IMG/VR virus record: IMGVR_UViG_3300031134_000466
Length of the DNA: 64,000 nt
DNA from: a virus
Lineage: Duplodnaviria; Heunggongvirae; Uroviricota; Caudoviricetes
Strand: one strand, 5' to 3'
Each line of letters begins with the position of its first letter. Within the stretch, counting starts at the first letter, position 1. The notes beneath the pieces were generated by a model. The model was not told the DNA's origin and searched no databases. It was given only the letters and a program-made list of their open reading frames with translations. This document shows positions 9,546 through 62,312 of the stretch, in pieces. A program made the translations under genes and the position numbers.

Positions 9546-10065
9546 CCACGTAGGTGTTCACGTGGTCAAGAAGCTCGGCAAGGGTTGCGTACTGAATCTT
9601 ACCGTCAAAGCTCGGGGCGAAAGGCTGACCCTGCCATGTCATGCGACGGTAAACCCAGCCATGCTCACGCTTAGCGAAAGTGATGGTGTTGACACCAGAG
9701 TCGATGTCAAGCGAGCGGGCTTCAACCTGCTTCAGGTACCAACCAGTAAGCTGGGTCTTACGGTAACGGATGTACTGGGCGACAAGCTTAGCGTCTTCCT
9801 CATCAGGAGCAAGGTAGTTCATGTAGTTGCTGTACTCACTGCTGTTATCAGGAACCACCAGAGCAGCGATGAAGAACGTGCCTACATGCATGTCCCTAAC
9901 GACAGGGACACGGTACTGGGCGACCCACGGGTGGTTGATGTCAACCTGGCTCAGGGTGGTCTCAGTGTAACCTTCGGCAATATCTGTACTCATTTGAAGA
10001 ACTCCAATATGATGGGGAACAGGACGTATTAGCTCTACTCTACCAGACGCAGGTTCTAAAATCAA
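9481..10065 (-). CDS. Hypothetical protein
   Basis: ORF, 4-nt overlap with downstream-strand neighbour at 10062-10065. Confidence 0.5.
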   Translation of the reverse strand: MILEPASGRVELIRPVPHHIGVLQMSTDIAEGYTETTLSQVDINHPWVAQYRVPVVRDMHVGTFFIAALVVPDNSSEYSNYMNYLAPDEEDAKLVAQYIRYRKTQLTGWYLKQVEARSLDIDSGVNTITFAKREHGWVYRRMTWQGQPFAPSFDGKIQYATLAELLDHVNTYVDEVSPKWIAFKEKEAALEGAE

Positions 10066-12331: not shown

Positions 12332-13324
12332 ATGTCAGAAGAAAACAACCTCGAACCTCGTGAGCAGCAGCACCCAGCTTATGAGGCAATCAACTGGAAC
12401 AACGTCGATGAGTTCGACAACGCTGTTTGGCAGAAACTTACCAGTAACTTCTGGTTGCCAGAAAAAGTCTCTGTTTCCAACGACCGTAAAACATGGGAAA
12501 CCTTGTCTGATGCAGAAAAGAAGCTGGTTCTCCATGTCTTTACTGGTCTGACAATGCTTGACACCATTCAGGGTCGTTTCGGTGCTTTGAGTATTATGAA
12601 AGATGCAACTTCGTTGTTCGAAGAAGCTGTGTACACAAACATTGCGTTTATGGAGAATGTTCACGCTAAGAGCTACTCTTCTATCTTCTCTACTCTGTCC
12701 ACCACAAAGGACATTAACCAGTCCTTCAACTGGTCACAGCATAATGAGTTCCTTCGTAAGAAGGAAGAAATCATCATGTCCTACTACCGCGACACCGAGC
12801 ACCCTTTAGCTCCTCAGCGTCGTAAGATTGCTTCAACCCTGCTTGAATCCTTCTTGTTCTACTCAGGTTTCTACCTTCCTCTGTACATGAACTCACAGGC
12901 TAAGCTCACAAACTCAGCTGACATCATCAAGCTGATTATTCGTGACGAAGCAGTTCACGGTTTCTACATTGGTAAAAAGTACCAGGACAGCATTGAAGAA
13001 CTGGATGAGGCTACTAAAGCTGAACTCAAAGACTTCACCTACGAATTGCTTCTCGACTTGTTCGATAACGAAATTCGTTACACTCAGGACTTGTATGATG
13101 AGTTCGGTCTTACCGAAGACGTAATTGCTTTCTTGAAGTACAACGCAAACAAGGCTCTTGCTAACTTGGGCTATGAGCCTTTGTTCCCTGACCCTGAAGT
13201 ATCTGCAGCTATCACTTCGCAGCTCAACGCAGGTTCTGACACGCACGACTTCTTCAGTGGAAGTGGAGCATCCTACGTGATGACCACTCGTGAAGAGTTG
13301 GCTGAAGAGGACTGGGACTTCTAA
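12332..13324 (+). CDS. Ribonucleotide reductase class I small (beta/R2) subunit
   Basis: Two ExxH di-iron ligand motifs (MENVHAKSY, RDEAVHGFY), radical Tyr-region SYSSIF, C-terminal acidic tail EEDWDF. Confidence 0.9.
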   Translation: MSEENNLEPREQQHPAYEAINWNNVDEFDNAVWQKLTSNFWLPEKVSVSNDRKTWETLSDAEKKLVLHVFTGLTMLDTIQGRFGALSIMKDATSLFEEAVYTNIAFMENVHAKSYSSIFSTLSTTKDINQSFNWSQHNEFLRKKEEIIMSYYRDTEHPLAPQRRKIASTLLESFLFYSGFYLPLYMNSQAKLTNSADIIKLIIRDEAVHGFYIGKKYQDSIEELDEATKAELKDFTYELLLDLFDNEIRYTQDLYDEFGLTEDVIAFLKYNANKALANLGYEPLFPDPEVSAAITSQLNAGSDTHDFFSGSGASYVMTTREELAEEDWDF

Positions 13325-13347
13325 TCTACACTGACATGTAGCTTCTT

Positions 13348-13391
13348 AGGAGGGCTGACACTGAATACAAATTTTCAGTGTCAGCCCTCCT
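13348..13391 (+). terminator. 16-bp stem-loop after RNR gene
   Basis: aggagggctgacactg ... cagtgtcagccctcct. Confidence 0.5.
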
Positions 13392-13537
13392 TGTGTTAAC
13401 AGACCAGAAACGTATCCCATTAGCCGCAGACGCCCATCTGCTGCCCTAATACCCTTCATTCACTCAAGTGGACGGCTTACACTACCCAACCTCTTAGACG
13501 CCGTTTTAGTAAGAAACTGCTTTATAGGGTTACCGAG

Positions 13538-14050
13538 TTGCATTCTTCGGACCTTCCTGCTAAGGTAAGGAACATACAGTCCTTATTCGTTCCACCAGGA
13601 AGAAACAAAGCTTTTATGTTTGATGAGATTGGCTCGGCGCCTCAGACCCGGTACAAGCCCCGTGCGGGCGTTGTGCAGTTCCCTGAGAAGACTGCTCTTT
13701 CCAACCGTCAGCGTTCCTACCTGGATATTGCTGTTCGCCTCGCTGAGTCCTCGGATGCAAGCTTCAAGCACGGAGCAGTTATTGTTCGTGGCGGCAGCGT
13801 TCTTGCTGTCGGAGTGAACAAGTGGAAGAATCGTGACCTTCCTCCGACTCCCCCTGATGTGTACAACCCTGACATCACTGTCCACGCTGAGATTGATGCT
13901 CTTTCCCGAGTGAAGGACGCTCGCGGAACCACTGTCTACATTGCCCGAGTCACCCGTAGCGGCGACGAGCGTTTCTCTCGCCCCTGCAACCGTTGCGAGA
14001 AGGCTCTCATCGAGGCTGGAGTCAAGCGGGTCGTCTACACGGTAGGCTAA
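13538..14050 (+). CDS. dCMP/CMP deaminase (CDA fold)
   Basis: Zinc-binding HAE (HAEIDAL) and PCxxC (PCNRCEKAL) motifs with dCMP-deaminase spacing; true start may be an internal Met. Confidence 0.8.
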   Translation: MHSSDLPAKVRNIQSLFVPPGRNKAFMFDEIGSAPQTRYKPRAGVVQFPEKTALSNRQRSYLDIAVRLAESSDASFKHGAVIVRGGSVLAVGVNKWKNRDLPPTPPDVYNPDITVHAEIDALSRVKDARGTTVYIARVTRSGDERFSRPCNRCEKALIEAGVKRVVYTVG

Positions 14051-18429: not shown

Positions 18430-21147
18430 ATGGCCACCCTCATCGGCGTATCAGGAAAAATTGCGTCAGGTAAAGATTACTTGACTGACAAGCTTGTAAA
18501 CGAACTGAAACGTCTTGGTTTTACCATCGACTACACAGCCTTCGCTGCACCCCTGAAGCAGGAACTCAACGAAATCATCTCTCTGATTCGAGCTTTCCCT
18601 GAACAGGATGAACTGACTCTTTCTTTCTCCATCGCTCGTAATCTGGACATCAACTACGATGATGCTCTTCTGATTGCTACTAATCTGAGAACAGAAGTGC
18701 TTGCAGATGAAACTCTCAACGGTTACTCACGAACAGTCAAAATTCGTGAATCTCTTCAGTATCTTGGTACAGAGATTCGCAGGAAGCAGCGTCCTGAATA
18801 CTGGACTGACTTGTTCTTGAACTTCGTCAACAATTCAGAAACAGATTTCATTTTCGTTTCAGATGCACGTTTTCCTAATGAAATGGACACGGTTGTCGAC
18901 AATCAAGGTGTTGCTCTACGTCTTGACATTCCAGAAGAAGTTCTTGCAGAGCGTCGAAACAAGCGTGACGGCATCAAATACACTGATGAGCAGTTGAATC
19001 ATATCTCAGAAACTGCACTGGATGATTACACCAAATTTGACATGATGATTGGTGTGCAGTTCAACGAACGTGAAATCGTAGAGAATATCCTGAAAAAAGT
19101 TGAACGACTTCAGGAACTTCCTGCAAAAGCTTCTCGCGTCCTGAAAGCCAAAATCGCAGAGCATACACCTTCAGTGTCAGATAAGAAAGATGTTTACCCA
19201 GAGGTGAATTTACCTGAAGGCCAGTACAAAGTGTTGTCTTTGTTTGCAGGTGCAGGTGGATTAGATTTAGGTTTTGAGTTAGCTGGATTAGAAGCAGTTC
19301 ACGGTAAAGAAAAAGTGGACGCTGCTTACAAAGACAAAAAAGCATTTGACGAGCTCCGCAAAGAGAACCTCATTCACACGGTCTACGTAAATGACAACTT
19401 CAAAGATGCAATAGCTTCCTACCGTCAGAACTTTCCTGAAACGTTTATTGACGAACGAGATATCAAAAAAATCAGCAGCTTCCCTGATGCAGACCTTCTG
19501 TTAGGTGGATTCCCTTGCTTCCCTAAAGGAACAGGTGTAGCTACAGAGACAGGTTACAAAAACATTGAAGATGTCGAGAAAGGTGATTTTGTTCTCACTC
19601 ATGAAGGTCGTTACCGTGAAGTAACAGACACCATGACACGCAATGTGAACAAATCAGCCACTCTACATGCTTACGGTTCTCTTCCTTTGGTCTCAACGGT
19701 GAATCATCCTTACTGGGTGAAAGAAACTGTCGATTCTGAACCTAAATGGGTTCATGCTGAGAACATTCAGCCAGGTTGGTTTGTGTCTCATCCAATCAGC
19801 ACATTCAGTACAGATGAAGTAACCGAAAAAGAAGCCAAGTTTGCTTACTTAGCCGGCGTCTTCGCTCAGTGTGGTACAAAAACTTTGAACGACGAGCACA
19901 AGCCAAGCTATCTCACTCCTTACAATGATGAGGAGTTCCTGGCTTTGCTGGCTGAAATTGATGCTGTCTGTTCAAAAGAAGGCAAAAACGTCATCGTCCA
20001 CAGTGAACAGCTGAACAAGATGATGAAATTGTTCGGAACTACCAAATGGAACAAAGTCATTCCTGAAGAGGTCCACCAGAAACCACGAGCTTGGCAGAAA
20101 GCTTTCCTTGACGGCTTCCTGTTCCACAACTCTGACCAGGAAGTGCACAGCAAGAACTTGGCTGTTGGCGTGGCTCGAATTATTCGTAGTTTGAACCCTA
20201 CACAGGATGTTATCGTGTCCTCACCCAAATACAGTTCCTGGATTGTAACTGCAACTGACACTACCGTAGCTCATCATGATGACAACTATGTATGGGTTCC
20301 TGTGGAGCGTTTGCAAGTAAGAAACGAAATGGGAGTACTTCCTGTTTACGATATTACTGTAGCCGAAGACGAATCATTCGTAGCAGATGGATTTGTAGTT
20401 CACAACTGCCCTGGCTTCTCAGCAGCAGGTCTTCGCATGTTAGATGACCCTCGCAACTTCCTGTACCTGCATTTCGTACGAGCTGTTGTTGACGCTCAAC
20501 CAAAGATTTTCGTAGCAGAAAACGTAAAAGGTCTACTCACTCATGGTCAAGGTGAAGCTTTCAACCAGATAGTCGAAGACTTTGCAGCAGCAGGTTACAC
20601 CATCTACTACAAGCTGATGAAAGCAATTCAGCATGGTGTACCTCAGATGAGAGAGCGATTGATTATTGTTGGTGTGCGAAACGACATTGATTTTGAATAC
20701 CAGCATCCTGCTGCCACTCATGGTGAAGGTCTACTTCCATACAAAACTCAAAGAGACGCTTTCTACGATTTGAGGGACCTGAACGATGAACACTACGAAG
20801 GAGACTTCTCTTCTCGCTACCGTTCCAGAAGGTTCAAACTGGACTGGGATGTACCGTCAAAGACCATTTTGGCAACAGGGCGGCACCTGCCTTTGCACCC
20901 TGACGGAGTGCCTCAGGAGAAGCTGGAGCAGGACTTGTGGAGTTTAGACGCTGCAGACCGTAGATTCACTGTAAGAGAAGCTGCACGAATCCAGACATTC
21001 CCTGACTGGTATGATTTCGTGACAACCTCTCGCGGAACAACCAACACAGTCCTGGAGAAACAGTACCGTCAGATAGGTAACGCTGTTCCTGTCGAACTGG
21101 GACGAGTTGTTGCTGAACCTATTGTTCAGTTCCTGAAAAGTCTGTAA
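18430..21147 (+). CDS. Fusion protein: T4 gp1-like dNMP kinase (N-terminal) + DNA (cytosine-5)-methyltransferase interrupted by an intein
   Basis: N-term GVSGKIASGKDY...AAPLKQEL and SDARFPNEMD match dNMP-kinase P-loop and DxR motifs; MTase motif I FAGAGG, motif IV GGFP-C...PGFSAAG (split by intein), ENV (motif VI), QMRER (VIII), GNAVPV (X); one continuous frame. Confidence 0.85.
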   Translation: MATLIGVSGKIASGKDYLTDKLVNELKRLGFTIDYTAFAAPLKQELNEIISLIRAFPEQDELTLSFSIARNLDINYDDALLIATNLRTEVLADETLNGYSRTVKIRESLQYLGTEIRRKQRPEYWTDLFLNFVNNSETDFIFVSDARFPNEMDTVVDNQGVALRLDIPEEVLAERRNKRDGIKYTDEQLNHISETALDDYTKFDMMIGVQFNEREIVENILKKVERLQELPAKASRVLKAKIAEHTPSVSDKKDVYPEVNLPEGQYKVLSLFAGAGGLDLGFELAGLEAVHGKEKVDAAYKDKKAFDELRKENLIHTVYVNDNFKDAIASYRQNFPETFIDERDIKKISSFPDADLLLGGFPCFPKGTGVATETGYKNIEDVEKGDFVLTHEGRYREVTDTMTRNVNKSATLHAYGSLPLVSTVNHPYWVKETVDSEPKWVHAENIQPGWFVSHPISTFSTDEVTEKEAKFAYLAGVFAQCGTKTLNDEHKPSYLTPYNDEEFLALLAEIDAVCSKEGKNVIVHSEQLNKMMKLFGTTKWNKVIPEEVHQKPRAWQKAFLDGFLFHNSDQEVHSKNLAVGVARIIRSLNPTQDVIVSSPKYSSWIVTATDTTVAHHDDNYVWVPVERLQVRNEMGVLPVYDITVAEDESFVADGFVVHNCPGFSAAGLRMLDDPRNFLYLHFVRAVVDAQPKIFVAENVKGLLTHGQGEAFNQIVEDFAAAGYTIYYKLMKAIQHGVPQMRERLIIVGVRNDIDFEYQHPAATHGEGLLPYKTQRDAFYDLRDLNDEHYEGDFSSRYRSRRFKLDWDVPSKTILATGRHLPLHPDGVPQEKLEQDLWSLDAADRRFTVREAARIQTFPDWYDFVTTSRGTTNTVLEKQYRQIGNAVPVELGRVVAEPIVQFLKSL
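19516..20406 (+). mobile_element. Intein (297 aa) with LAGLIDADG homing-endonuclease motifs, inserted at the catalytic Pro-Cys of MTase motif IV
   Basis: Starts with Cys (CFPKGTGVATETG...GDFVL block A), block B TVNH, two dodecapeptide motifs (YLAGVFAQCGT; FLDGFLFHNSD), ends VVHN followed by +1 Cys; excision restores GGFPCPGFSAAG. Confidence 0.8.
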
Positions 21148-24300: not shown

Positions 24301-24391
24301 TCTCAATTAGGTGTTATGGGAACCTGTGAAAAGCTTGTTAATTACCGATACTTTTTTCAGCTACCTAACCCCCTTAGAGAGAAGAATCTGT

Positions 24392-26083
24392 ATGTCTGCT
24401 GGCAGCACGCACCCGACTATTCAAAACTACACAAAAATACGAGCAGCTTTTAGCTCCTCACAAGCCGCTATCGACTTAGCTTCCATCATGGTGGGTGTCA
24501 TCGTAATCGGACTTATTGGTGGAGTAATCTCTGCCACAGTATTCGCTATCATTCCTTGGGCACAGGACAAAGCAGCGAAAGCATCTCTCTCCTCAGTACA
24601 CACAGCAGAATCAGCATATGCTGGGTTCAGTGTTGGTGATGACGGAGAGAAGAAACAAACTTTTGGTAACTACGACGACTTGAAAGCTGAACATGGAGGT
24701 TTGCTTCAAGAATCTGAACGTCTAATAGTTTCCACCGGAACAAACAACAAAGACTGCTATGTTGCTGTCATTACCTCAGAGACAGGAAACCGTTTCTGGA
24801 TTGACAACAAGATCAGTGCACCTCGCATGTACCAAGAAGGTGACCAGTCAGAGTGTCTGAACCTTGAAGACATGTTCGGTGATGACAACGGTGGTATTGG
24901 ATACAACTCCTCCCTTGATGGTACTTACTTCGAAGGGCAAGGTTTTGCAGCTGTTGTTCACATTCGTAACAGTGCAATCAACTATGGTGTTGAACCAGAC
25001 CCAACTTGTGAGCCTACTGACCCAGCCACACAGGTAACACAGGTAAAAGCTTACTTAGACAGTGAAGAAATTGAAATTGCTGGTAGCTGGGAATACATGC
25101 AATCATCAGACGGAATTCAGACAGCAGTAGGCATCCAAACCACTAACGGATACATTGGTGCTACCACAGAGGAAGCTCAAACTTTCGCTGAAAGAGGACA
25201 AGTAATTTTCTTACCAGCTGGTTGTGCTGATTCAATCACCATCAACGTATCAGGAACATCCACTCCTCCAGGTGGTGACGACGGCGGTGGTGACCAACCT
25301 GTTGAACTATGCAGCAAGTACAATAACATGTTCACTGACGCCCAAACAACCAGTGAAACCACTGGAACTACTTTCTATGTTGACCCAAGCTGCAACACCA
25401 GCATGACTGCAATGTTCACATCCTTTGAGTCGATGTTCCAAACAATGGGACAGCCAACACTTACCGCTCGTACTGACGGTTGCTGGTCAGAACAGGGAAC
25501 TTATAAGAAAGTTGCCTGTGACCCAACAGGACAAGCTTACTACTACAGCCCAGGAAGCATGGAACAGTTCTGGACTTCAGCTAACGGAACAACAGTTGAA
25601 TTGTACCTCAACGGTTCAAGTACCCCATTCTTCTCCCAGGCATCAAACACTCCAAGTGAGTTCTACTACGAAGTTCCTCGTGAAGATAGGACAGATTCCT
25701 ACACTCAGAGCTCATACAACGCTGACGCTCCAACTGTCGGAATTGATGTCACAAGTAGCTACAGAATGACCAACTTCTACCGTGCAGCTAAACCAGCTGC
25801 AGGAACAACTTCAAACTCTTGCTTGGATGAACTTCAAGCGGGTAAGCTTCCAACCACTTACCAAGGCGAGTATGGTGTAGCTAACTGCCAAGGTGAAGAT
25901 GACTTCCGTATCTATGACTGGGACATCTCAGGTAACTTCGGTAATGCCGATGAAGCAACTTACGAAAACATCAAAACAGTCAGTGAACAAGGCGGTATGG
26001 TCAAGTTCACAACAACAGAAGGTAAAACTTCAACCATCCAGCTGAACCCAGGAGCTTTGAACCCAGAACCACAAGCTTCATAA
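24392..26083 (+). CDS. Pilin/pseudopilin-like anchored surface protein, paralog C, with Cys-rich C-terminal domain
   Basis: SSSQAAIDLASIMVGVIVIGLIGGVISATVFAIIPWAQDKAAK...VHTAESAYAGF matches first 60 aa of paralogs A/B; rest unrelated, at least 10 Cys; ATG 24392 chosen over the longer TTG-initiated ORF at 24311. Confidence 0.55.
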   Translation: MSAGSTHPTIQNYTKIRAAFSSSQAAIDLASIMVGVIVIGLIGGVISATVFAIIPWAQDKAAKASLSSVHTAESAYAGFSVGDDGEKKQTFGNYDDLKAEHGGLLQESERLIVSTGTNNKDCYVAVITSETGNRFWIDNKISAPRMYQEGDQSECLNLEDMFGDDNGGIGYNSSLDGTYFEGQGFAAVVHIRNSAINYGVEPDPTCEPTDPATQVTQVKAYLDSEEIEIAGSWEYMQSSDGIQTAVGIQTTNGYIGATTEEAQTFAERGQVIFLPAGCADSITINVSGTSTPPGGDDGGGDQPVELCSKYNNMFTDAQTTSETTGTTFYVDPSCNTSMTAMFTSFESMFQTMGQPTLTARTDGCWSEQGTYKKVACDPTGQAYYYSPGSMEQFWTSANGTTVELYLNGSSTPFFSQASNTPSEFYYEVPREDRTDSYTQSSYNADAPTVGIDVTSSYRMTNFYRAAKPAAGTTSNSCLDELQAGKLPTTYQGEYGVANCQGEDDFRIYDWDISGNFGNADEATYENIKTVSEQGGMVKFTTTEGKTSTIQLNPGALNPEPQAS

Positions 26084-26095
26084 ATAACCAAACTG

Positions 26096-26136
26096 TTGAA
26101 GCCTCCCACCTGTAGTAATAAGGTGGGAGGCTTCAA
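26096..26136 (+). terminator. 16-bp perfect stem-loop
   Basis: ttgaagcctcccacct ... aggtgggaggcttcaa. Confidence 0.5.
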
Positions 26137-26336: not shown

Positions 26337-26365
26337 GTTGCAAACCTCCGAAAACGTGCTATAAT
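26337..26365 (+). promoter_or_regulatory. Near-consensus sigma-A/sigma-70-type promoter (TTGC(C)A - 16/17 nt - TATAAT) ending about 7 nt before the PARP ATG; implies a leaderless transcript
   Basis: ttgc(c)aaacctccgaaaacgtgc TATAAT aagagc ATG; no room for a Shine-Dalgarno. Confidence 0.45.
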
Positions 26366-26371
26366 AAGAGC

Positions 26372-27676
26372 ATGGGAAAAATCATTGAAGAGACAATGCT
26401 TGTCATGGTTGACACAAAGAACAACAACAACAAGTTCTACCATGTCACATTGGATGATGCTAACGTCGTCACCAAGCGCTGGGGACGTGTAGGAGCTGAA
26501 GGAGCGAGTTCCGTCGAGACAACAGGCAAGATTGGTTACGAGCGAGCCATCAAGTCCAAAGAGAAAAAGGGCTACAAGGTCTCACCTATTGTTAGCACAG
26601 GTGTCACAGTCAAGAGTTCTGTCAACCACCTTGACGAAGTAGCTAAGAAGTTTCTGTCCAAGGACAGCGGAGACAGCCTTATCAGCAACCTCATTGACCG
26701 ACTCATCGCATCAAACCAGCACCAGATTATGGAGCAGTCCGGTGGTATGATTAAGATTACCGACGACGGAACCGTAAAGACCGCTCTCGGTGTTGTTGAC
26801 CTTTGCTCCATCAACTCTGCCCGAGACCTCATTGGTGAGATGCAGAAGAAGAAAACAGGGCAGACCAAGCTCCTGGAAGATTACCTCACCCTCATTCCTC
26901 AGAACATTGGGTACCGTCGTGGTTGGGAAGAGGACTTCCTGAAGACGGAAAACTTTGCCAAGCAGATGGACTTCTTGAAGCAGCTTGAGGATTCTGTGCA
27001 GTGGCGAAACACCACCGCACAGGTCACCACAGATGACGAAGACAAGTTCGACATCGATGCTCACAAAGACCTGTTCCGCATGAACCTTGCGAAGATTTCC
27101 GACAGCGGAAAAGACTTCGACCGTATCAACAAGATGTTTAAAGAAACACGCAACAACATGCACACATCACGTAACCTCAAACTTGTGAACGTGTATGCAG
27201 TGGAAGATGTCAAGGGCAAGGAAGCTTACGAAGCTGCTCAGAAGAAGTATGGAAACGTACGTGAACTCTGGCACGGAACAAAAGCCTCCAATGTTCTCTC
27301 CATTCTCACAAAGGGATTGTTCGTGCCTAACGCAGGTAGCGGTATCCCTGTGACAGGAAGAATGTTCGGTGATGGTGTCTACTTCAGTGACCAGAGCACC
27401 AAAAGCTTGAACTACGCCAACGGTTACTGGGATGGTTCACGCACCAGCCAGAACTGTTTCATGCTTCTGAACGATGTTGTCATGGGTCATGAGTACCGCC
27501 CTCAGCGTTGGGACTACAGCTCTCTCCGTCAGGCACACAAGGGCGTTGGAACTTCAGGTAAGCCTTACCAGTCCATCAGCGTTCGTGGTGGAACCTGTAA
27601 CGTTCGAAACAACGAAATGATTATTTGGAACACTGACCAGGTGGCTGTACGTTACCTCTGCGAATTTGGTAGCTAA
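26372..27676 (+). CDS. Poly(ADP-ribose) polymerase (PARP)-like protein: WGR domain + helical regulatory region + catalytic domain with H-Y-E triad
   Basis: WGR motif KFYHVTL...VVTKRWGRVGAEG...KKGYKV; catalytic LWHGTKASNVLSIL (His), GVYFSDQSTKS (Tyr), YANGY, NEMIIWN (Glu) in PARP order. Confidence 0.85.
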   Translation: MGKIIEETMLVMVDTKNNNNKFYHVTLDDANVVTKRWGRVGAEGASSVETTGKIGYERAIKSKEKKGYKVSPIVSTGVTVKSSVNHLDEVAKKFLSKDSGDSLISNLIDRLIASNQHQIMEQSGGMIKITDDGTVKTALGVVDLCSINSARDLIGEMQKKKTGQTKLLEDYLTLIPQNIGYRRGWEEDFLKTENFAKQMDFLKQLEDSVQWRNTTAQVTTDDEDKFDIDAHKDLFRMNLAKISDSGKDFDRINKMFKETRNNMHTSRNLKLVNVYAVEDVKGKEAYEAAQKKYGNVRELWHGTKASNVLSILTKGLFVPNAGSGIPVTGRMFGDGVYFSDQSTKSLNYANGYWDGSRTSQNCFMLLNDVVMGHEYRPQRWDYSSLRQAHKGVGTSGKPYQSISVRGGTCNVRNNEMIIWNTDQVAVRYLCEFGS

Positions 27677-27745: not shown

Positions 27746-28399
27746 CTAATTGTGTTTTTTTGCAGGTACAGGTCTACTCATTGAATTTGCACTTCCTAAT
27801 ATGAATATTAACGCTGTGCTGGCTAAATTCAATATATTACTAAACGTTAAAACTAAATTTAGCCTTGATTGTTTTGTTTCACGGATTTCAGGATTGTAAA
27901 CATATTCTGGTACTTCTGCCAAGCATTTTTCTTTAGGAGTTAGGTTGTTGTACCAGGCAGCTGTTTGGGGCATGGAACCGGCACTATTTGAAACATTCGC
28001 ACATCGTTCGGCGGGAGTCATATTCTCTATTCGGGCGTCATTCAAAGAAGTTCCAATTACAATACTTTGCAGAAGGAAAGATATAACACTCAAAGTCAAG
28101 ATAAGACCAGGTAATTTTGATAAAGATTTTGTGTCATTGCCTCTTCTAAACCATAGGCTAATTGTAGGGGCTAAAATAGCTATAGTGAATATCAACGTGA
28201 GTACGTAAAATTGTTTCGTACTTATAAACTCAGCATATCGCATAAGTAACAAAACGATATTTACAGAAACATAAAATAACATCCAATACCAAAATTCACT
28301 TTTACTGGCTGTTCCTTGGGGCTTGAAACTACGTTCAAATCCATGGCGTATTGCTCTGAAAAAATTAACAGATTCTGCAACAGGGGGTATATAAGTCAT
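27746..28399 (-). CDS. Membrane protein (4-5 TM), unknown function
   Basis: Multiple hydrophobic helices; no motif recognised. Confidence 0.45.
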   Translation of the reverse strand: MTYIPPVAESVNFFRAIRHGFERSFKPQGTASKSEFWYWMLFYVSVNIVLLLMRYAEFISTKQFYVLTLIFTIAILAPTISLWFRRGNDTKSLSKLPGLILTLSVISFLLQSIVIGTSLNDARIENMTPAERCANVSNSAGSMPQTAAWYNNLTPKEKCLAEVPEYVYNPEIRETKQSRLNLVLTFSNILNLASTALIFILGSANSMSRPVPAKKHN

Positions 28400-28538: not shown

Positions 28539-29579
28539 ATGACCACTGCTACTAAATGTGCCAAACCAAAAGGGGTATATTGCCGTTTGCACAACCCTGA
28601 ACCTCGTGGGTATGCTTCTGCATCAGAAGCGTTAAATAAAGCAGAGCAGGACTTCAACAAAGCCAACCCGATCAAATCTTCTTCTCCTGGTGTTTCTTTT
28701 CATAAAAACGGTGAGACTCGCACATTGCACAAAAGTGTTCCAGAGAACATTGCTGACCATATTGCTTTGAATCAAGAACAACTGTCTCACTTGTCAGACA
28801 TGCAGAAGAAAGCTTTGAACGGTTACACCGGCTTTGCTGCAGGTGTTTGCAATAGTGTGTTGTTAGCAAAAGAATTCGCTTATGAGTATTACGAAGATGC
28901 CCCTCTATGGAAAGAAGCCCCAGGAGGAGCGTGTGACTTTGTTTCTCGTGAAGATTTAGTTGACTACATGGAAACAATGGATGGTATCCTTGCTTCCCGC
29001 CAGGAACAATCCCGAGTTCTATACCGTGGTATTCCTATTTACTCAGAACTGCATGACGAGATTGGTAATGGCATAGGTAAAAAGCTGCCTTTCGCTGATG
29101 CTACTGGCTTAGCAGAGGGTTTGAGTGAATATTACAAGCCTGGTACTGTCATTAAGCATGACCATTACTTGTCCACAACAGCATCAGCGTATTATGCAGC
29201 TGACCGTACAGACAATTCCATCGGGACAAAAAAGAGCTATTACGATAGCAATGATGTACCAGTCGGTATTGTCTTTGAGCTGAAAACCAATGCTGGTTTG
29301 GATGTTACAGCTGCAGCTCGTCATCATTCTTATGAACGTGAAGTGGTGTTACCTCGTGAAACTTACTTCAAAGTTGTCAACGTGGACGTGAATCCACAAG
29401 CTTATGACACTGTTTCAGGATTCGATACGCTCAACCATCCTGAGGAGCGAGAGCAGAAAACTTTCACTCGCTTAGCTGCTGTTGTTCAGATGGTCGAAGT
29501 AGACAAAAACGGCAAAGAAATAACAGGTACTGCACCTCATAATCCAGAGAGAAAAATCAGCGACATCATTCCTGGATGA
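28539..29579 (+). CDS. Mono-ADP-ribosyltransferase (R-S-E class) with N-terminal Cys-KP-C-H module
   Basis: N-term KCAKPKGVYCRLH; Arg motif VLYRGI, Ser-Thr motif YLSTTAS, catalytic YEREVVLPRETYFKVV (E-x-E). Confidence 0.7.
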   Translation: MTTATKCAKPKGVYCRLHNPEPRGYASASEALNKAEQDFNKANPIKSSSPGVSFHKNGETRTLHKSVPENIADHIALNQEQLSHLSDMQKKALNGYTGFAAGVCNSVLLAKEFAYEYYEDAPLWKEAPGGACDFVSREDLVDYMETMDGILASRQEQSRVLYRGIPIYSELHDEIGNGIGKKLPFADATGLAEGLSEYYKPGTVIKHDHYLSTTASAYYAADRTDNSIGTKKSYYDSNDVPVGIVFELKTNAGLDVTAAARHHSYEREVVLPRETYFKVVNVDVNPQAYDTVSGFDTLNHPEEREQKTFTRLAAVVQMVEVDKNGKEITGTAPHNPERKISDIIPG

Positions 29580-30499: not shown

Positions 30500-31465
30500 A
30501 TGTGCTACCCCAAACCTGGTCCTCGCTGTTCAGCTCATGCTGCAGTTAAACTGGCGACTGTAAAACTCGCTTCTACCAGCGGTAGTCAAGATTTTGCCGA
30601 GTACTTAGCTCATCAGGAGCGTCTTGAAGAAGCTCAGCTGGAGTATGACATCACGCCAGCAGGTTTGAAAGATTTACAGGATTTAGTGGGTCAACGAAAT
30701 GACCCTGACGCTGAGCTCCGTTATTCCAAAGCTAAAGCCCTGAGAGCAAAGAAGTTGGCTTTGTTGCATGAAGACCAGAAACAAGAGCAAGGTCATACTC
30801 TTGCAAGGGTTCAAGGGGTAAATGAAGATTTTTGTTCTGATGAAATTGTTCGTTCTAACAAAGATGCTGGAATCACATCCGCAGCTTTAGTAGCTGAAGC
30901 TGAACCGTGGTTTAATCAGTTGAACGATGATGAACTTTCTCAAATGCACTGGATGACCGACTATGGTTCAATGGAAGCTAATACGCACATCGCAGGAACC
31001 AATGACCATAAACGTTTTGGTGGTCTATTCTCTGCAGAGAACTTGGAATCTCGTATGGTTCAAGTTGACTCGGCTTTGAGTAAGTTTGAGTCACATCATG
31101 ATGAAGTTGTCTACAGGGGCTTTCGTGAAGGCTCTCTTCCCTCTGCTATGGCAAACAACTACCGGGTATCAGATGATGTGAAGCAAGCTGCAGTTCTGAA
31201 ATCTTTCACCGTAGGTGAAGTCTACAAGTCTGATTTCTACATGCCAACTTCTGTACAGCCTGAAGAGGCTGCTCGTTTTGCTGATTTCGGTTGCGTCATG
31301 GAAATCAAAACCCGCAAAGCTGCTCCTGTATCTGCCATTTCTGAAGTTCCCCGTGAGTCAGAAAAACTGATTGGTCGTAACAGTGAATTCAAAGTCGTGG
31401 CAATCAAAGAGAACATCATGTACGGCATTAAGAGAATGACTGTTGTTCAGTTAGAGCAACTCTAA
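30500..31465 (+). CDS. Mono-ADP-ribosyltransferase (R-S-E class) with N-terminal MCYPKPGPRCSAHA module
   Basis: Arg motif VVYRGF, Ser-Thr motif YMPTSV, catalytic PRESEKLIGRNSEFKVV (E-x-E). Confidence 0.7.
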   Translation: MCYPKPGPRCSAHAAVKLATVKLASTSGSQDFAEYLAHQERLEEAQLEYDITPAGLKDLQDLVGQRNDPDAELRYSKAKALRAKKLALLHEDQKQEQGHTLARVQGVNEDFCSDEIVRSNKDAGITSAALVAEAEPWFNQLNDDELSQMHWMTDYGSMEANTHIAGTNDHKRFGGLFSAENLESRMVQVDSALSKFESHHDEVVYRGFREGSLPSAMANNYRVSDDVKQAAVLKSFTVGEVYKSDFYMPTSVQPEEAARFADFGCVMEIKTRKAAPVSAISEVPRESEKLIGRNSEFKVVAIKENIMYGIKRMTVVQLEQL

Positions 31466-39327: not shown

Positions 39328-40449
39328 TCAGTCAGCAGTTTTTCCGTTCAAGTTCCAGAATGGCTTCTCAAACTCAGGCTGAATCATTTTCCAGATGATG
39401 TCAGAGATTTTCTTCTCAGACCTGGTATCAAAATGACCTCCGCTGTGACGAGAGAATAACAAACCAGTAATGCGTTTGTCTTCTTTCTGTACAGCTGCAG
39501 CGTAGTCCTTCTGAGTGTATCCTTCAGGAAGTTCAGAAAGAATACGGTTGTAAGTTTCCTCAACTGTTGCACGCAATTCAGCATGCTCTGCAAGTAGTCG
39601 GTCACGAGTTGTTTCGACATACTCAACGAACTCATCAGGGAGACCAACAATCCATGAAGTGAAGTCACCGTCAGCTACAAGCAGCTCCCAGATGCGACGC
39701 GAAGAAGCACCTGTGATGACACGGTGAAGCTGAACGTAGTCATCCTGTTTCACTTTCACTCGAACATCACTATCCAGGAAGTGAACAACAACGCCTTCTT
39801 TGTTCTCACGACCAGGAGCGGCCAAAGCTTCAGTAAGGCTGTTGTATTCAAACTGCTCAACCTTCAACCAAGTCCATTCATCAACCTGTGATGCTGGTAC
39901 AGAGCGACCTGTTGCTGTGTTCACTCGGGCAATCAAGATGAGGTCATCCAAATCACCGTAGTTAACAACGATACGGTTTGTAGGGTAGATGATTTCCCAG
40001 ATGTAAGTTTCACCAGCAAGTGGCTCCCATTTTCCGTCGTACAGCTCCTGGTAACGTGCTGTGGCATGCAGAGCCTGCTCAGAGCTGAATGAACCTCGTG
40101 TGGAGATGTTCAGTCGACCAGTTTCAGGGTTTACATATGAAACACCCATAGAACCATCTGCTTTGTCTGTGACAACGATAGGTCCAGTCAGTGCATCCTG
40201 AGGAACATCTGGTTCGCCGTGGTTAAAGAACTTACCAAGAGGGCGGGAGACAATCTCCTGGGTGGAACCGTCAACGATAAGTCCTCGTGAAGCTAATGTT
40301 GCAGCGTTCCAGGCTCGGTCAAACTGGCATACCTGTGAGTAGTCAAAGATAGCCAGGTCAAGCGTAGGGTGAACCTGACGATTGATGTGCTTGTTCTGGA
40401 ATTCAGCTGCCCAAAGTTCAGCAGGAGCGATATCGTAAATGTGTACCAT
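39328..40449 (-). CDS. ATP-dependent RNA ligase (Rnl family), paralog 1
   Basis: Nucleotidyltransferase motif I TDKADGSMG (KxDG), same order of downstream motifs as ORF 54122. Confidence 0.7.
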   Translation of the reverse strand: MVHIYDIAPAELWAAEFQNKHINRQVHPTLDLAIFDYSQVCQFDRAWNAATLASRGLIVDGSTQEIVSRPLGKFFNHGEPDVPQDALTGPIVVTDKADGSMGVSYVNPETGRLNISTRGSFSSEQALHATARYQELYDGKWEPLAGETYIWEIIYPTNRIVVNYGDLDDLILIARVNTATGRSVPASQVDEWTWLKVEQFEYNSLTEALAAPGRENKEGVVVHFLDSDVRVKVKQDDYVQLHRVITGASSRRIWELLVADGDFTSWIVGLPDEFVEYVETTRDRLLAEHAELRATVEETYNRILSELPEGYTQKDYAAAVQKEDKRITGLLFSRHSGGHFDTRSEKKISDIIWKMIQPEFEKPFWNLNGKTAD

Positions 40450-42792: not shown

Positions 42793-44685
<1,893 letters not shown>

Positions 44686-48133: not shown

Positions 48134-48655
48134 ATGAATAAACTTGTAGTTGCCTGTGATGGTTCATGCCTAAAAAATCCAGGCGGCGCAATTGGATGGT
48201 CCTGGGCGGACAGCAAAGGACGCTGGCAAGCAAACGGTTTACCCACCGGGACAAACCAGGTAGCTGAACTTATTGGGTTATTGTCTGTCCTTTACGCTTT
48301 TCCTAATACAGACCTTCACATCAAAATTGACTCACGTTACGCTATGGACATCTCAACCAAATGGATGTTTACCTGGAAGAAGAATGGTTGGTGGCGTGAC
48401 ACTCAGCAGACAAAAGCAGTTAGCAACCTCACCCACGTGAAAGCTCTTTATGAAGCTCTTCGAATTAGAAAAAAGAAGAACCTTGTAACAACATTCGAAT
48501 GGGTGAAAGGCCATGCTTCTGACACTTTGAACAACAAAGCCGACAAAGAAGCTCAAGCAGCTGCCAGGCGAGTCAAAGCCGGCAAACTAGCGTATGCTGA
48601 CTCAGCAAAGAACACAACTTCTGAACGACAAACAAGAATGTTAGAAACCCTGTGA
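48134..48655 (+). CDS. rnhA: Ribonuclease HI
   Basis: DEDD catalytic set in RNase H order: VACDGSC..NPG.GG, NQVAEL, IKIDSRY, KGHASDTLNNKADKEA. Confidence 0.85.
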   Translation: MNKLVVACDGSCLKNPGGAIGWSWADSKGRWQANGLPTGTNQVAELIGLLSVLYAFPNTDLHIKIDSRYAMDISTKWMFTWKKNGWWRDTQQTKAVSNLTHVKALYEALRIRKKKNLVTTFEWVKGHASDTLNNKADKEAQAAARRVKAGKLAYADSAKNTTSERQTRMLETL

Positions 48656-49461
48656 CTCTCACTATTGCTTCATACAACATCCAAGTGCCTGCCGCTAAAG
48701 CTGAATTCCATGGCTGGGAGGGGAGGAAAGAAGAACTGTTGGCAACGTTGCCAACTTTAGGTGATCTGTTTGGTTTACAAGAAGTTTCATACGTAGATAC
48801 TCAAGGGTCAGAGGTTTCAACCCAGCTACGTAACAACGGATTTGATGGTTATGAACCTTCACATAACGACTTTAGCGAATATGATGACGAATTCCATCAG
48901 AGAAATCCTATCTTCTGGAAAGCTGACAAATTTGAACTCAAACAAAGCCATGTAAGGCTACTCACTACAGGAACTGTCGAAGAGCAGCAAGAGCTTCCCA
49001 ATATTGAAAACAGATACAGCACTCACGTATTGCTGGAGCATGTTTCAGGTGATTTGATCCATTTCTTCAACCTTCACCAGCAGCATGTTCCCATTGAACT
49101 AACAGATGAAGAACTCATTGCCAAATATGCAGCGGTGCAGGTAAAAGGTCTGATAGCTTTGCACGAATTTGCTCAGGAAGTCAACCCAGAAAATAATCCT
49201 GCAATCATTGTTGGAGATTTCAACTCTGTTTCCCCAACTGTCATGGGGTTCACCTGTGCCAAGAAAGCCGCTAACGAAAACGTGAATGGCCAGTACAACA
49301 GCTACCACGGCTATGTAGAAGAAACGGCTGCTAACGGTGACTACATAATTGACCATATACTGTCAAATTTCCCAGCTGGTGACATTCTTCGCACTGAGAC
49401 TTTGATAGAAGACAAAGGCAGCGACCATTACCCTCTGCAAGCATCATTCAAACACTGCTGA
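48652..49461 (+). CDS. Endonuclease/exonuclease/phosphatase (EEP) family protein
   Basis: TIASYNIQ N-terminus, GDFNS, SDHYPL motifs; 4-nt overlap with rnhA. Confidence 0.7.
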   Translation: MTLTIASYNIQVPAAKAEFHGWEGRKEELLATLPTLGDLFGLQEVSYVDTQGSEVSTQLRNNGFDGYEPSHNDFSEYDDEFHQRNPIFWKADKFELKQSHVRLLTTGTVEEQQELPNIENRYSTHVLLEHVSGDLIHFFNLHQQHVPIELTDEELIAKYAAVQVKGLIALHEFAQEVNPENNPAIIVGDFNSVSPTVMGFTCAKKAANENVNGQYNSYHGYVEETAANGDYIIDHILSNFPAGDILRTETLIEDKGSDHYPLQASFKHC

Positions 49462-49519: not shown

Positions 49520-50176
49520 ATGAGAATAGTAGTAGCTGATTGTTCAGTCATTTACACAGGAAGAGGAGACACCCGTCTTCCCCGAGCAGTCCGAGCGATC
49601 ATTGTCAAAGATGATGGTTCAATCTCAGTGCATAACGACAAAAGTAACAAACCTTTGAACTATATGGGTAAAGGTAACGAGCTTTCAGAAGTTGAGCTGG
49701 AAGATTGTAAACTATGGTTCTTTGACACAAGGCAAGAAAGTCTCCGCATTACTTTACATGAAGTTATTTCTGACACTGATTTCCTCCTTGATCGAAACGA
49801 TGAAGGACTGATCCGTGACGGCACAGAGAAGCAGCTGCAGGCTTGGTTAGCAGAGAACCCAGAAGCATTAGGTGAAGGCTATACTTTCGTTCAAAGAGAA
49901 TATCAGACAGGTGCAGGAGCTGTTGATTTGTTAGTCACTGACCCTGAAGGTAACCCTGTGGCGGTAGAAGTGAAACGAGTGGCCATGATTAACAGTGTGA
50001 GCCAGACACAACGTTATGTTGAGTCGATGAAAGAGGACCCTGAGTTTGCCAATACCACTGGCATTATCGCCGCTTTAGACATTCGACCTAACACTGTGAA
50101 GTTAGCGGACAAAAAGAAAATCCGCTGTGTCACTTTACCAACATGGTGGCGTGACCCAGCGGATACTTCAATGTAA
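49520..50176 (+). CDS. NucS/EndoMS-like PD-(D/E)xK nuclease
   Basis: N-terminal beta-rich region then GAVDLLVTDPEGNPVAVEVKR (D...EVK) C-terminal RecB-like core. Confidence 0.5.
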   Translation: MRIVVADCSVIYTGRGDTRLPRAVRAIIVKDDGSISVHNDKSNKPLNYMGKGNELSEVELEDCKLWFFDTRQESLRITLHEVISDTDFLLDRNDEGLIRDGTEKQLQAWLAENPEALGEGYTFVQREYQTGAGAVDLLVTDPEGNPVAVEVKRVAMINSVSQTQRYVESMKEDPEFANTTGIIAALDIRPNTVKLADKKKIRCVTLPTWWRDPADTSM

Positions 50177-50177
50177 T

Positions 50178-50666
50178 TCAGCCGTCAAACTTTTCGACAT
50201 CTTGAGGTGCTACACGGTAAGCGTATTCTGTTTTTGCTGACAGGTAGTACACGTACAGCTTGTCAGTTTTGTCAGTACTGGTTTCCAGAATGTAATTACG
50301 TTTTGCATCTTCATCCAAGAACCCGTTCTGATTGTGAAGCATCTCAAGCGATTCTTCTTTTGTAAGGCCAAGATAAGAGTAGTTCTTGTCAAACCATTTC
50401 AAATAGCTTTTTTCTGAAATAGCTACTTTCTGTTGGGGCTGGAAGAATGAAATGTGCCAGAAGCTGAAACCGGCAGCTCCTACAAGAAGGAGAGTGAATA
50501 GCCAGGTCAGGATAACAGGAAGTTGCCTGATGGCAGGGATAATCATGCCCAGGATGAGTAACCCTGCTGGGATGAGGAGGAACCAGAAGTTGAAGTTCTC
50601 ATACCCAGATAGATCATGAGGAGGCAACCAACCAGTGAGGTCTTCCAGTGTGATGTCGTTGGGCAT
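50178..50666 (-). CDS. Membrane protein (3 TM), unknown
   Basis: Hydrophobic helices in N-terminal half. Confidence 0.45.
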   Translation of the reverse strand: MPNDITLEDLTGWLPPHDLSGYENFNFWFLLIPAGLLILGMIIPAIRQLPVILTWLFTLLLVGAAGFSFWHISFFQPQQKVAISEKSYLKWFDKNYSYLGLTKEESLEMLHNQNGFLDEDAKRNYILETSTDKTDKLYVYYLSAKTEYAYRVAPQDVEKFDG

Positions 50667-50800
50667 GATTCTAATGTTCCTTAATCGTTGTCAGCTTTAT
50701 GAGCGGTCAAAGAATTCTATCATCAACGGCTAAAGCACATAGTATTTGACAGCTGGCTGGGTTTCATGGTAAGTTGGAGTATCTTAAGTTAGGAAACAAA

Positions 50801-59624: not shown

Positions 59625-59641
59625 GATGATAGACATGATGC

Positions 59642-60238: not shown

Positions 60239-60330
60239 AGTTGTTCCGATAGACTGAGTTAGCATGCTTAGCATGTCTGCCCTGGCAGTAAACCAGTTTA
60301 TTCGATTTAGACAACAAAGGAGTACCTATC

Positions 60331-61548: not shown

Positions 61549-61590
61549 TACCTGCCAAACACACAGGTTATCTCATGGTAGAATAGTTAA

Positions 61591-62238: not shown

Positions 62239-62312
62239 TCACAAAAACGTGCTTTTTCGTCAATATGACGATATACTGTAATAAGAATGGTCTAAGGAAG
62301 GAAACCCGTATC

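Follow-up and report, generated by a model that had tools for sequence, protein, structure and literature searches.

A three-domain PARP with WGR, helical and ART domains in a large phage-like element, and its possible link to nucleic acid break repair

What would a phage-like element do with a complete poly(ADP-ribose) polymerase (PARP) of the kind that responds to DNA breaks? The question is raised by a gene at positions 26372–27676 (+ strand, stop codon included) of a 64,000-nucleotide stretch of DNA from IMG/VR record IMGVR_UViG_3300031134_000466. This stretch, analysed at its full length, is called the window below, and the gene product is called the window PARP. The protein consists of a WGR domain, a helical domain (HD) and an ADP-ribosyltransferase (ART) domain, and is a genuine and probably active three-domain ADP-ribosyltransferase of the DNA-dependent PARP clade. 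As to its role, we lean with moderate confidence towards a break-activated, PARP2/3-like enzyme that reports breaks in nucleic acids and coordinates their end-healing and sealing in a phage-like element of ∼0.85 Mb.

Domain architecture and conserved residues of the window PARP

One long open reading frame (ORF) in the ORF listing of the window coincides exactly with 26372–27676; it starts with ATG and encodes 434 amino acids, and its assignment draws on Pfam, phmmer, AlphaFold2, Foldseek and PHROG. The Pfam family PARP (PF00644) matches residues 247–432 with E = 2.4e-29 and 102.7 bits (cutoff 26.7), covering profile positions 2–197 of 199, and the WGR family (PF05406) matches residues 8–69 with E = 1.1e-10 and 42 bits (cutoff 22). 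Using phmmer against the sequences of the PDB, residues 4–405 align with the WGR–HD–ART fragment of human PARP1 (4opx_C, E = 1e-20), and this alignment runs straight through the HD; PARP1 residue numbers given here are the chain numbering of 4opx_C plus 517. The profile of PHROG 23333 matches the protein from end to end (E = 4.5e-65), while no NCBIfam model matches. In homologues that are 45–47% identical (P0037, P0040, P0042, P0048 and P0053), precomputed matches to the regulatory-domain family PF02877 are present.

An AlphaFold2 model built from a 46-homologue alignment has a mean pLDDT of 81.7 and a pTM of 0.70. It consists of a β-rich WGR domain (residues 4–71), a disordered linker, five helices within residues 102–234 and the ART domain. 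Taking all evidence together, the WGR domain corresponds to nucleotides 26381–26584 (+), as delimited by Pfam and by alignment to the WGR domains of PARP3 and PARP2. It is followed by the low-confidence linker (residues 72–85, 26585–26626; pLDDT below 50 for residues 77–84). The HD, which is regulatory and of the autoinhibitory type, comprises residues 86–234 (26627–27073) according to phmmer against PARP1, the AlphaFold2 helices and Foldseek. Residues 237–433 (27080–27670) form the ART catalytic domain, as indicated by Pfam, phmmer, the alignment with PARP2 and conservation among homologues.

The best Foldseek matches in the PDB are full WGR–HD–ART chains of PARP2 and PARP1 in complex with DNA breaks, with E values of 1e-24 to 1e-22 and TMq values of 0.61–0.65, except for 7aeo_A (0.50). 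In particular, PARP2 chain 6x0l_P is matched with E = 9.6e-25 and a TMq of 0.63 over 499 columns, and PARP1 chains 4opx_C and 4dqy_C with a TMq of 0.65. Fragments that contain the HD and ART domains are also retrieved (for example 1pax, TMt 0.68), and BFVD holds full-length viral counterparts, of which the best is 39% identical with a TM of 0.76–0.78. The three-domain architecture is thus confirmed far beyond chance. This bears out the first-pass annotation, which was made from the letters alone and had proposed a complete enzyme with WGR, helical and catalytic domains: the WGR and PARP profiles match, structure prediction recovers the three-domain fold, and the catalytic residues fall at homologous positions.

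These residues lie in three motifs that had been recognized in the canonical order His, Tyr and Glu: LWHGT (residues 299–303), GVYFSD (335–340) and NEMIIW (414–419). The codons are 27272–27274 for H301, 27380–27382 for Y337 and 27614–27616 for E415. In the phmmer alignment H301 and Y337 coincide with PARP1 H862 and Y896, and K344, S345 and Y348 with PARP1 K903, S904 and Y907. The C-terminal segment VRNNEMIIWNTDQVAVRYLCE aligns with LNYNEYIVYNPNQVRMRYLLK of PARP2, which places E415 on the catalytic glutamate of PARP2 in NYNEYIVY. In an alignment of 46 homologues with identities of 42–76%, H301, G302, Y337, K344, Y348 and E415 are invariant in the catalytic domain, as are N18, N20, K21, F22, Y23, G38, R39, K63, G67, Y68, P176 and L205 in the WGR domain and HD. 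A pseudo-enzyme was considered and rejected, since every catalytic and NAD+-site residue that was checked is invariant across these homologues.

The WGR signature is present at the N-terminus as annotated, with KFYHV at residues 21–25, RWGRVG at 36–41 and KKGYKV at 65–70. A profile of this region retrieves the WGR domain of PARP3 as the best match in the PDB (E = 8.7e-9), followed by that of PARP2 (∼8e-7). The segment NNNKFY (residues 18–23, nucleotides 26423–26440) is identical in PARP3 and corresponds to N127–Y132 of PARP2, which reads NNNKYY. W37-G38-R39 (26480–26488) corresponds to PARP2 W151–R153 within the stretch RWGRVG, which is identical in all three proteins. As a consequence, the residues with which PARP2 contacts the break, N127, N128, N129, K130, Y132, W151 and R153, map onto N18, N19, N20, K21, Y23, W37 and R39. 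Among the homologues N18, N20, K21, Y23 and R39 are invariant, N19 is nearly so and position 37 is Trp or Tyr. In PARP2, W151 stacks on the 5′-terminal ribose, and K130 and Y132 contact the 5′-phosphate side; N127 is a glycine in PARP1 (PMC6294510). Mutation of N127, K130, Y132, W151 or R153 reduces or abolishes DNA-dependent activation of PARP2; a stable complex with DNA is lost when N127, W151 or R153 is mutated, and N127 and R153 are essential (PMC6294510).

In the HD, the phmmer alignment superimposes LIPQNIG (26891–26911) on LIPHDFG of PARP1, and L202 and L205 (26975–26986) on the αF leucines L765 and L768. The latter two are leucines of the HD core, and PARP1 is de-repressed when they are mutated. 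For bacterial PARPs, the equivalent leucines have been noted as conserved, and helical domains have been modelled (PMC5966428).

The window PARP thus has in common with PARP2 and PARP3 the WGR–HD–ART order, the H-Y-E triad, the NNNK[FY]Y and RWGRVG motifs, and LIPxxxG together with the αF leucines. Sequence identity is only ∼20%, and the disordered basic N-terminal tail is absent. The WGR domain is also shorter: KKGY directly follows the helix, whereas the PARP3 WGR chain runs past the aligned region. Partners such as HPF1, XRCC1 or PARG are neither known nor found for the window PARP. Judged by its residues, the protein is best described as a minimal PARP2/3-like enzyme; it is more like PARP2 and PARP3 than PARP1, as zinc fingers and a BRCT domain are absent and the WGR domain is of the PARP2/3 type.

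Relatives and host element

We know of no established physiological role for bacterial PARPs. The enzyme from Herpetosiphon (HaPARP) is DNA-dependent and makes long poly(ADP-ribose) (PAR) chains, and the CD160 PARP of Clostridioides difficile is active (PMC4245714, PMC8120803, PMC5966428). Phage PARPs have been catalogued since at least 2014 (Aeromonas phage Aeh1 and Cellulophaga phage phi4:1); their occurrence in jumbo phages was pointed out in 2021, and by 2022 they ranked among the most frequent viral ARTs (PMC7824862, PMC9503650). 'NAD-jumbo phages', in which NAD+ synthesis is combined with a PARP proposed to be a DNA-damage sensor, followed in 2024 (PMC11662467). The occurrence of PARPs in phages and their combination with phage-encoded NAD+ synthesis are therefore already in the literature (PMC4245714, PMC7824862, PMC9503650, PMC11662467).

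Our searches agree with this picture. Using tblastn, relatives were found in 16 GenBank phage records, several of which carry the annotation 'poly (ADP-ribose) polymerase', and for the homologue of Klebsiella phage FBKp34 the existing annotation names all three domains (WGR, regulatory and catalytic). An exhaustive phmmer search over 1.84 billion representatives of clusters at 50% identity returned 3157, 1219 and 323 proteins at E ≤ 1e-3, 1e-10 and 1e-30, respectively; those among the 150 matches listed are mostly compact full-length proteins of ∼400–480 residues. Confirmed relatives occupy 84 places in the species genomes of GTDB (Actinobacteria, Cyanobacteria, Acidobacteria, Armatimonadota and others), and 43 contigs of IMG/VR carry them as well. 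The earlier remark that PARPs are rare outside eukaryotes is overstated in view of these counts: the family is sporadic but well populated, and the window PARP is a new, divergent member of a family already catalogued in bacteria and large phages.

With bacterial WGR-PARPs the window PARP shares the compact architecture of ∼430 residues. The WGR regions N34–Y39, Y57–G61 and K88–Y93 of the C. difficile enzyme (PMC5966428) can be read as NNNKFY, [WY]GRVG and K..KGY of the window PARP. The closest cellular relatives are from Leifsonia (46% identity), Rathayibacter (43%) and Agromyces (42%). Bacterial genes are chromosomal, and many encode YGR, whereas the window gene lies in a phage-like element, encodes WGR and has no PARG gene nearby. 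It is also found near ART, NAD+ and RNA-repair genes; bacterial loci contain regulators, for example a cyanobacterial protein that by eye looks like a TetR-type regulator. The catalogued phage PARPs, which include those of Xanthomonas phages Xoo-sp13 and XacN1, Stenotrophomonas phages CM1 and RAS14, Klebsiella phage FBKp34 and Cellulophaga phages phi4:1 and phi17:2 and belong to PHROG 23333 and the 'PART' family of Iyer et al., are full-length homologues with 98–99% coverage and 31–41% identity. A jumbo-phage context with NAD+ genes has been described for phage PARPs as well (PMC11662467). The identity of the window PARP does not, however, exceed 41% with any copy in GenBank phages or 38% with any in IMG/VR, and the protein falls in a separate clade that is confined to unclassified contigs, the longest of 0.88 Mb.

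Within this clade, PARP orthologues of 57–76% identity are found in conserved synteny on contigs of 412–880 kb, the largest of which is ena:ERZ27247389:k141_483817 (880,409 bp; L002). The conserved order is MazG, dNMP kinase, signal peptidase, Wzy_C, NT5C, a variable segment, PARP, a second variable segment and SPFH, with RNase H, EEP and NucS further on. Since the PARP gene is kept in this position at 57–100% identity while its immediate flanks vary, it is marked as a core gene of the element. These flanks contain a GDSL lipase, a CHAP protein, a dCMP deaminase or small ORFs. Directly downstream of the window PARP lies a DUF805 membrane-protein gene (27746–28399, −). This gene is absent from SRR23625914_656 (L001; 11305–11405), in which the PARP is 100% identical, such that an indel can be placed at the PARP 3′ flank. 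On a 412 kb contig (L003), an IS605 OrfB/TnpB gene (Cas12f-like; 12444–13553, −) is found 1.1 kb downstream of the PARP orthologue.

The window also encodes a full-length Hsp70 (DnaK; 42826–44685, +). Its relatives of the same clade are 80% identical and reside on contigs of 828, 858, 879 and 883 kb, and syntenic relatives on contigs of 828–883 kb recur for several distinct protein clusters and data sources. Beyond this clade the best DnaK matches are Microbacteriaceae with 73–75% identity (Leifsonia, Lacisediminihabitans, Microcella and Rhodoglobus). Because DnaK and the window PARP both have their closest cellular relatives in Microbacteriaceae, there are hints of an actinobacterial, Microbacteriaceae-type host, despite a G+C content of 45%.

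Near-identical DNA was not found in GenBank phages, and a PARP of the window's lineage is absent from 185,579 GTDB species genomes, where the best match is 46% identical. For a YqaJ–RNase T protein of the window, IMG/VR contains no relatives and GenBank phages only partial ones (24–31% identity over ∼30% of the query); for neither protein is there a relative closer than 46% in GTDB, IMG/VR or GenBank phages. Exact-match look-ups with the genes at the ends of the window returned no record. The element belongs to an undescribed lineage with contigs of 0.83–0.88 Mb. The largest published phage genome that we found is that of BF3 (841,704 bp), which the 828–883 kb contigs would equal or exceed if they are viral. 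BF3 itself was rejected as a candidate identity, its G+C content being 55% compared with 45% in the window.

Start-site architecture and gene content of the window

The PARP gene is preceded by a σ70-like promoter site at 26338–26365 (+). It is composed of TTGCAA, a 16-nucleotide spacer and a TG-extended TATAAT that ends 6 nucleotides before the ATG, and matches the consensus at ten of 12 positions in addition to the TG. Further upstream, at 26098–26134, a perfect 13 bp hairpin without a T-run follows the preceding gene and would separate that gene from the PARP transcription unit; a terminator scan around the PARP gene found none.

The sequence TGNTA with its TA exactly 12 nucleotides before the start codon occurs at nine of the 64 window genes, compared with 0.26 expected per position. 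The starts are 5107 (−), 26372, 28539, 30050, 30500, 52729 (−), 54122, 59642 and 61591, and the motif mostly reads TGTTAGA. The genes concerned encode the PARP, three ARTs, an RNA ligase (Rnl1, at 54122), a metallophosphoesterase, a DUF4126 protein and two proteins of unknown function. Shine–Dalgarno-like sequences are scarce, with 19 of the 64 genes matching a lenient pattern. The geometry is retained at the PARP orthologues of L002 and of the L003/L004 contigs. For L003/L004 (∼9980–10003) the called PARP start is probably 21 nucleotides too far downstream, and an in-frame ATG 6 nucleotides after a TGTTAGAAT motif fits the leaderless geometry seen in the window. Collectively, this sequence evidence suggests that the genes form one promoter class with leaderless or near-leaderless mRNAs. 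Co-regulation of the PARP with the three ARTs is therefore probable.

The three ARTs are mono-ADP-ribosyltransferases with the R-S-E triad. Those at 30500–31465 (+) and 51758–52729 (−) are clear ADPrib_exo_Tox members in Pfam (E = 2e-15 and 8.6e-21, respectively). The third, at 28539–29579 (+), is divergent: its PF03496 match (E = 4.9e-4) is below the cutoff, although it aligns pairwise with the other ARTs across YRG / STT / ERE (R-S-ExE) and has a TGTTAGA-N6-ATG start. These and the following assignments come from Pfam scans of the 64 predicted genes (from ORFs of at least 90 amino acids). NAD+ synthesis is represented by a NadE-like NAD synthase (56409–57374, +), a second NadE (62265–63158, +; E = 1.1e-65) and a 507-residue NMNAT-like protein of cytidylyltransferase fold (58101–59624, +). 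The only match of the latter is a cytidylyltransferase domain at residues 59–230, and its C-terminal 280 residues are left without an explanation. Together with a 2OG–Fe(II) oxygenase (57364–58104, +), a DUF4126 protein, an AAA ATPase and an unknown gene, all flanked by the two NadE paralogues, this region (55747–63158) may form a Preiss–Handler-type NAD+ module.

The end-processing enzymes are an RNase H (48134–48655, +), an EEP nuclease/phosphatase (48652–49461, +), NucS (49520–50176, +) and the kinase-phosphatase Pnkp (50774–51706, +), with an unannotated gene of 162 residues, taken from the ORF list, between the last two (50178–50666, −). Two Rnl1-type RNA ligases are present, at 39328–40449 (−; PF09511, E = 1.4e-11) and at 54122–55363 (+), the second with the leaderless TGNTA start at position −12. 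The first-pass annotation had described the PARP as sharing a locus with three mono-ARTs, NAD+ synthesis genes, Pnkp, RNA ligases and an EEP nuclease. The listed genes are all there, one ART being weak, but the 'locus' is ∼38 kb of separately transcribed genes rather than an operon.

When the PARP, the three ARTs and four more window proteins, among them the close neighbours DUF805 and SPFH, were compared with PADLOC-DB 2.0, none matched a defence-system model; the only match was a weak one to mad8, for the AAA protein at 60331. Two further genes of the region deserve mention. A 905-residue ORF (18430–21147, +) combines an N-terminal dNMP-kinase-like region with a Hint/intein insertion and a C5 cytosine DNA methylase; its counterparts are shorter, comprising 553 residues in L002, with no Pfam match on record, and a 227-residue kinase only in L003. 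The gene immediately 5′ of the PARP (24311–26083, +) encodes 590 residues without a Pfam or PHROG match. By eye it shows a hydrophobic N-terminal segment resembling that of type IV pilins, followed by a Ser/Thr/Gly-rich region.

Possible roles in break signalling and alternatives

Neighbourhoods were compared by clustering the ORFs from 127 PARP loci and annotating the recurrent clusters. There is no universal partner gene, the best neighbour cluster being present in only 16 of 123 loci. In two viral PARP sequence groups, however, an Rnl1 gene lies directly upstream of the PARP on the same strand, at a distance of 21–1087 bp (IMG/VR loci L088–L091, L095, L104, L106, L112–L114, L116 and L118), and PARP and Rnl1 are all that these groups have in common within ±8 kb. 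A DNA ligase stands beside the PARP in L094, L101 and L107, a CCA-adding/poly(A)-polymerase-type enzyme in L107, L125 and L021, and in the isolated Cellulophaga phage phi17:2 (L130) the genes for a CCA-type enzyme, the PARP and a DNA ligase directly follow one another. Counted per locus, an Rnl1, an ATP-dependent DNA ligase or a CCA-adding enzyme is found within 3.5 kb in 17 of the 41 IMG/VR PARP loci, compared with two of 70 genome loci within ±8 kb (Fisher p = 3e-7; de-replicated counts are given below). No description of a PARP–ligase adjacency was found in the literature searched.

The same comparison brought up two other neighbours. A conserved protein of ∼180–210 residues without a Pfam match is encoded closely 3′ of the PARP in viral loci of three PARP sequence clusters, 5–262 bp downstream in L096, L104, L106, L108, L112, L114, L116 and L123, and further away (0.7–2.3 kb) in L113, L118 and L120. 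An accessory function is conceivable for this protein, of which the window encodes no homologue. Topoisomerase II-like proteins of the GyrA/GyrB type (recognized by eye) are encoded 2–7 kb upstream of the PARP in L011, L014, L019, L020 and L072, which are from Mycobacterium/Mycolicibacterium and an uncultured actinomycete metagenome-assembled genome, and in the viral locus group L088–L095.

From the architecture, fold, residue conservation, synteny and neighbourhoods we infer a working model of the activity of the window PARP, its activator and break dependence, the nature of its product, its targets and its biological role. In the absence of nucleic acid damage, the HD would block productive binding of NAD+. 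Upon docking of the WGR domain onto a 5′-phosphorylated nick or end, the contact would be relayed via R39 and N18–N20 to the HD, which would loosen. The H-Y-E site could then transfer ADP-ribose from NAD+ to the PARP itself and to other targets, possibly as chains as in the Herpetosiphon enzyme. The protein would be made from its own leaderless transcript, of the same promoter class as those of the three mono-ARTs, and would draw on NAD+ that the element can replenish (two NadE proteins and the NMNAT-like protein). Most likely it would report breaks that are made in nucleic acids during infection and so coordinate the end-healing and sealing enzymes. Among the conceivable roles, signalling and coordinating the repair of nuclease-inflicted breaks is favoured over pure host takeover, end capping and NAD+ depletion because of the ligase and CCA-enzyme adjacency in viral loci, because the window encodes two Rnl1 ligases, Pnkp, EEP, NucS and RNase H, and because the TGNTA start links the PARP to the three ARTs and to one of the Rnl1 ligases. 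A phage PARP acting as a DNA-damage sensor fed by phage NAD+ synthesis has been proposed independently (PMC11662467).

Several observations weigh against this repair-signalling role or against parts of it. In the WGR domain, Q159 of PARP2 is replaced by A45, and the alignments stop short or blur around the PARP2 5′-phosphate sensor Y201 and the K179/K183 region. The equivalent of Y201 could not be mapped because the prokaryotic WGR domain is shorter there; K63, G67 and Y68, with which the last WGR strand begins, are candidates solely by their position, with Y68 the candidate for Y201. In the catalytic domain, the position of PARP1 Y986 is taken by N413, which is invariant in the clade, and chain elongation may differ from that of PARP1 and PARP2. 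The H-Y-E triad is necessary but insufficient for polymer synthesis, as PARP3 has H-Y-E yet is a mono-transferase. Of the three profiles whose use had been suggested, PF05406 and PF00644 match above their curated cutoffs as described, but PF02877 (PARP_reg) does not match the window PARP even at E ≤ 1, and the HD is therefore established by alignment and structure. We regard this as an issue of sensitivity, because Pfam also misses PARP_reg in most bacterial PARPs though the helical domain can be modelled (PMC5966428). An eraser of the PARG, macrodomain or ARH type is found by Pfam neither among the 64 window genes nor within ±10 kb of the relatives. The ligase association is a lead rather than a demonstrated result, since p = 3e-7 per locus falls to p = 0.41 upon de-replication by PARP sequence cluster (6/17 viral versus 2/12 genome clusters). 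Adjacency could simply reflect the clustering of nucleic acid metabolism genes in large phages, and the window PARP itself is not adjacent to a ligase, the nearest being at distances of 11.7 and 26.4 kb. The literature searched yielded no experimental study of a phage PARP. Finally, the 64 kb contain no virion gene (terminase, portal or major capsid), and the ten window ORFs tested against PHROGs returned no virion families; the term 'phage-like' refers to gene content, and the viral nature of the element is unproven.

The NAD+ genes, the start-site class and the ARTs would also suit a host-takeover effector, which is the alternative that we take most seriously while considering it unlikely. 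In this case the PARP would act with the three R-S-E mono-ARTs, in the manner of T4 Alt, ModA and ModB, to (poly)ADP-ribosylate host proteins, for example RNA polymerase or translation factors, maybe after being switched on by DNA ends from degradation of the host chromosome, and the link to repair would be incidental. Both here and in L002 the PARP adjoins the ART cluster (28.5–31.5 kb in the window), the leaderless extended −10 geometry is common to it and all three ARTs, NAD+ synthesis genes are present in the same window, and phage PARPs have been proposed by Iyer et al. to work as the ARTs do, except that they would add chains (PMC7824862). The T4 enzymes are indeed phage NAD+-consuming modifiers of the same general type as the three ARTs, but they are of the R-S-E and not the H-Y-E clade and have no WGR/HD sensor; the likeness is a functional analogy only. 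L003 and L132, moreover, keep the PARP without an adjoining ART, and the recurrent proximity of a ligase or CCA enzyme in other viral lineages is not what takeover would lead one to expect. The full WGR and HD break-sensing apparatus is retained, and the data leave unexplained why a constitutive effector would need it. The head-packaging fusion or virion-module context that is typical of injected ARTs is also missing (PMC9503650). A modifier of nucleic acid ends, which we consider improbable, would ADP-ribosylate the terminal phosphates of DNA or RNA breaks, as PARP2 and PARP3 do on DNA in vitro, such that ends are capped against host exonucleases or marked for ligase and Pnkp, with proteins as secondary targets. 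The WGR domain is of the PARP2/3 type with PARP3 as its best PDB match, ligases and CCA enzymes recur beside viral PARPs, and Pnkp, EEP and NucS are encoded in the window; moreover, PARP2 is stated to modify DNA as well as proteins (PMC8190142). However, the Pfam scans of the window bring up no enzyme dedicated to taking ADP-ribose off nucleic acid ends (macro, NADAR or PARG type), and the ligase association on which this version also leans loses its significance upon de-replication.

Two further explanations concern the element and the cell. The window could derive from a drastically reduced actinobacterial cell or a megaplasmid, with the PARP serving endogenous DNA-damage signalling as in Herpetosiphon. 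The contig sizes of 0.83–0.88 Mb are within the range of very small cellular genomes, DnaK and the closest cellular PARPs point to Microbacteriaceae, many envelope-type genes are present (signal peptidase, Wzy_C, SPFH and permeases) and virion genes are absent from the window. We nevertheless think this quite improbable. The tRNA and Rfam scans found nothing in the window, the 64 genes scanned include none for translation or core metabolism, and DnaK has neither GrpE nor DnaJ nearby. The content is phage-like in its paralogous Rnl1, NadE and dCMP deaminase genes, three ARTs, YqaJ exonuclease, MazG, Pnkp and intein-split methylase, the PARP of this lineage is missing from the GTDB genomes, and the G+C content is far below that typical of Microbacteriaceae. 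Several observations thus argue for a giant phage or another extrachromosomal element rather than a cell. The last explanation, to which we attach very little weight, is a device for NAD+ depletion or superinfection exclusion, in which break-triggered runaway PARylation drains NAD+ and kills the cell or blocks competing phages. In eukaryotes, PARP hyperactivation is known to deplete NAD+, and NAD+ is a known battleground in phage–host conflict (PMC7824862). Yet no PADLOC defence model matches, the gene is conserved and syntenic rather than part of a variable defence island, and the same element invests in NAD+ synthesis, the opposite of depletion.

A wider scheme can be formulated, which is speculative and in our opinion doubtful. 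The WGR-PARPs of large phages would be the sensor half of a compact break-sensing and sealing module together with Rnl1, a DNA ligase or a CCA-adding enzyme, a viral counterpart of eukaryotic PARP-dependent nick repair that possibly acts on RNA or tRNA nicks or by ADP-ribosylating ends. Its carriers here would be undescribed actinobacterial 'megaphages' of ∼0.85–0.88 Mb, a size that matches or surpasses that of the largest phage genome published (841 kb).

What the present analysis adds to the published record is modest: a promoter class, a ligase linkage and an unusual host element that may extend the upper size limit of phage-like genomes. The window PARP is a compact copy in which all recognizable sensor and catalytic residues are intact. 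It is a good candidate for a first biochemical test of phage PARPs, because the same genome provides for NAD+ supply and encodes three mono-ARTs along with a full set of enzymes for end-healing and sealing. At stake is whether phage PARPs are activated by breaks, whether they form polymers and whether RNA or DNA ligases work together with them. Iyer et al. have put forward related versions from phages and from bacterial conflict systems as precursors of eukaryotic PARP signalling (PMC7824862), and the result would bear on the origin of that signalling.

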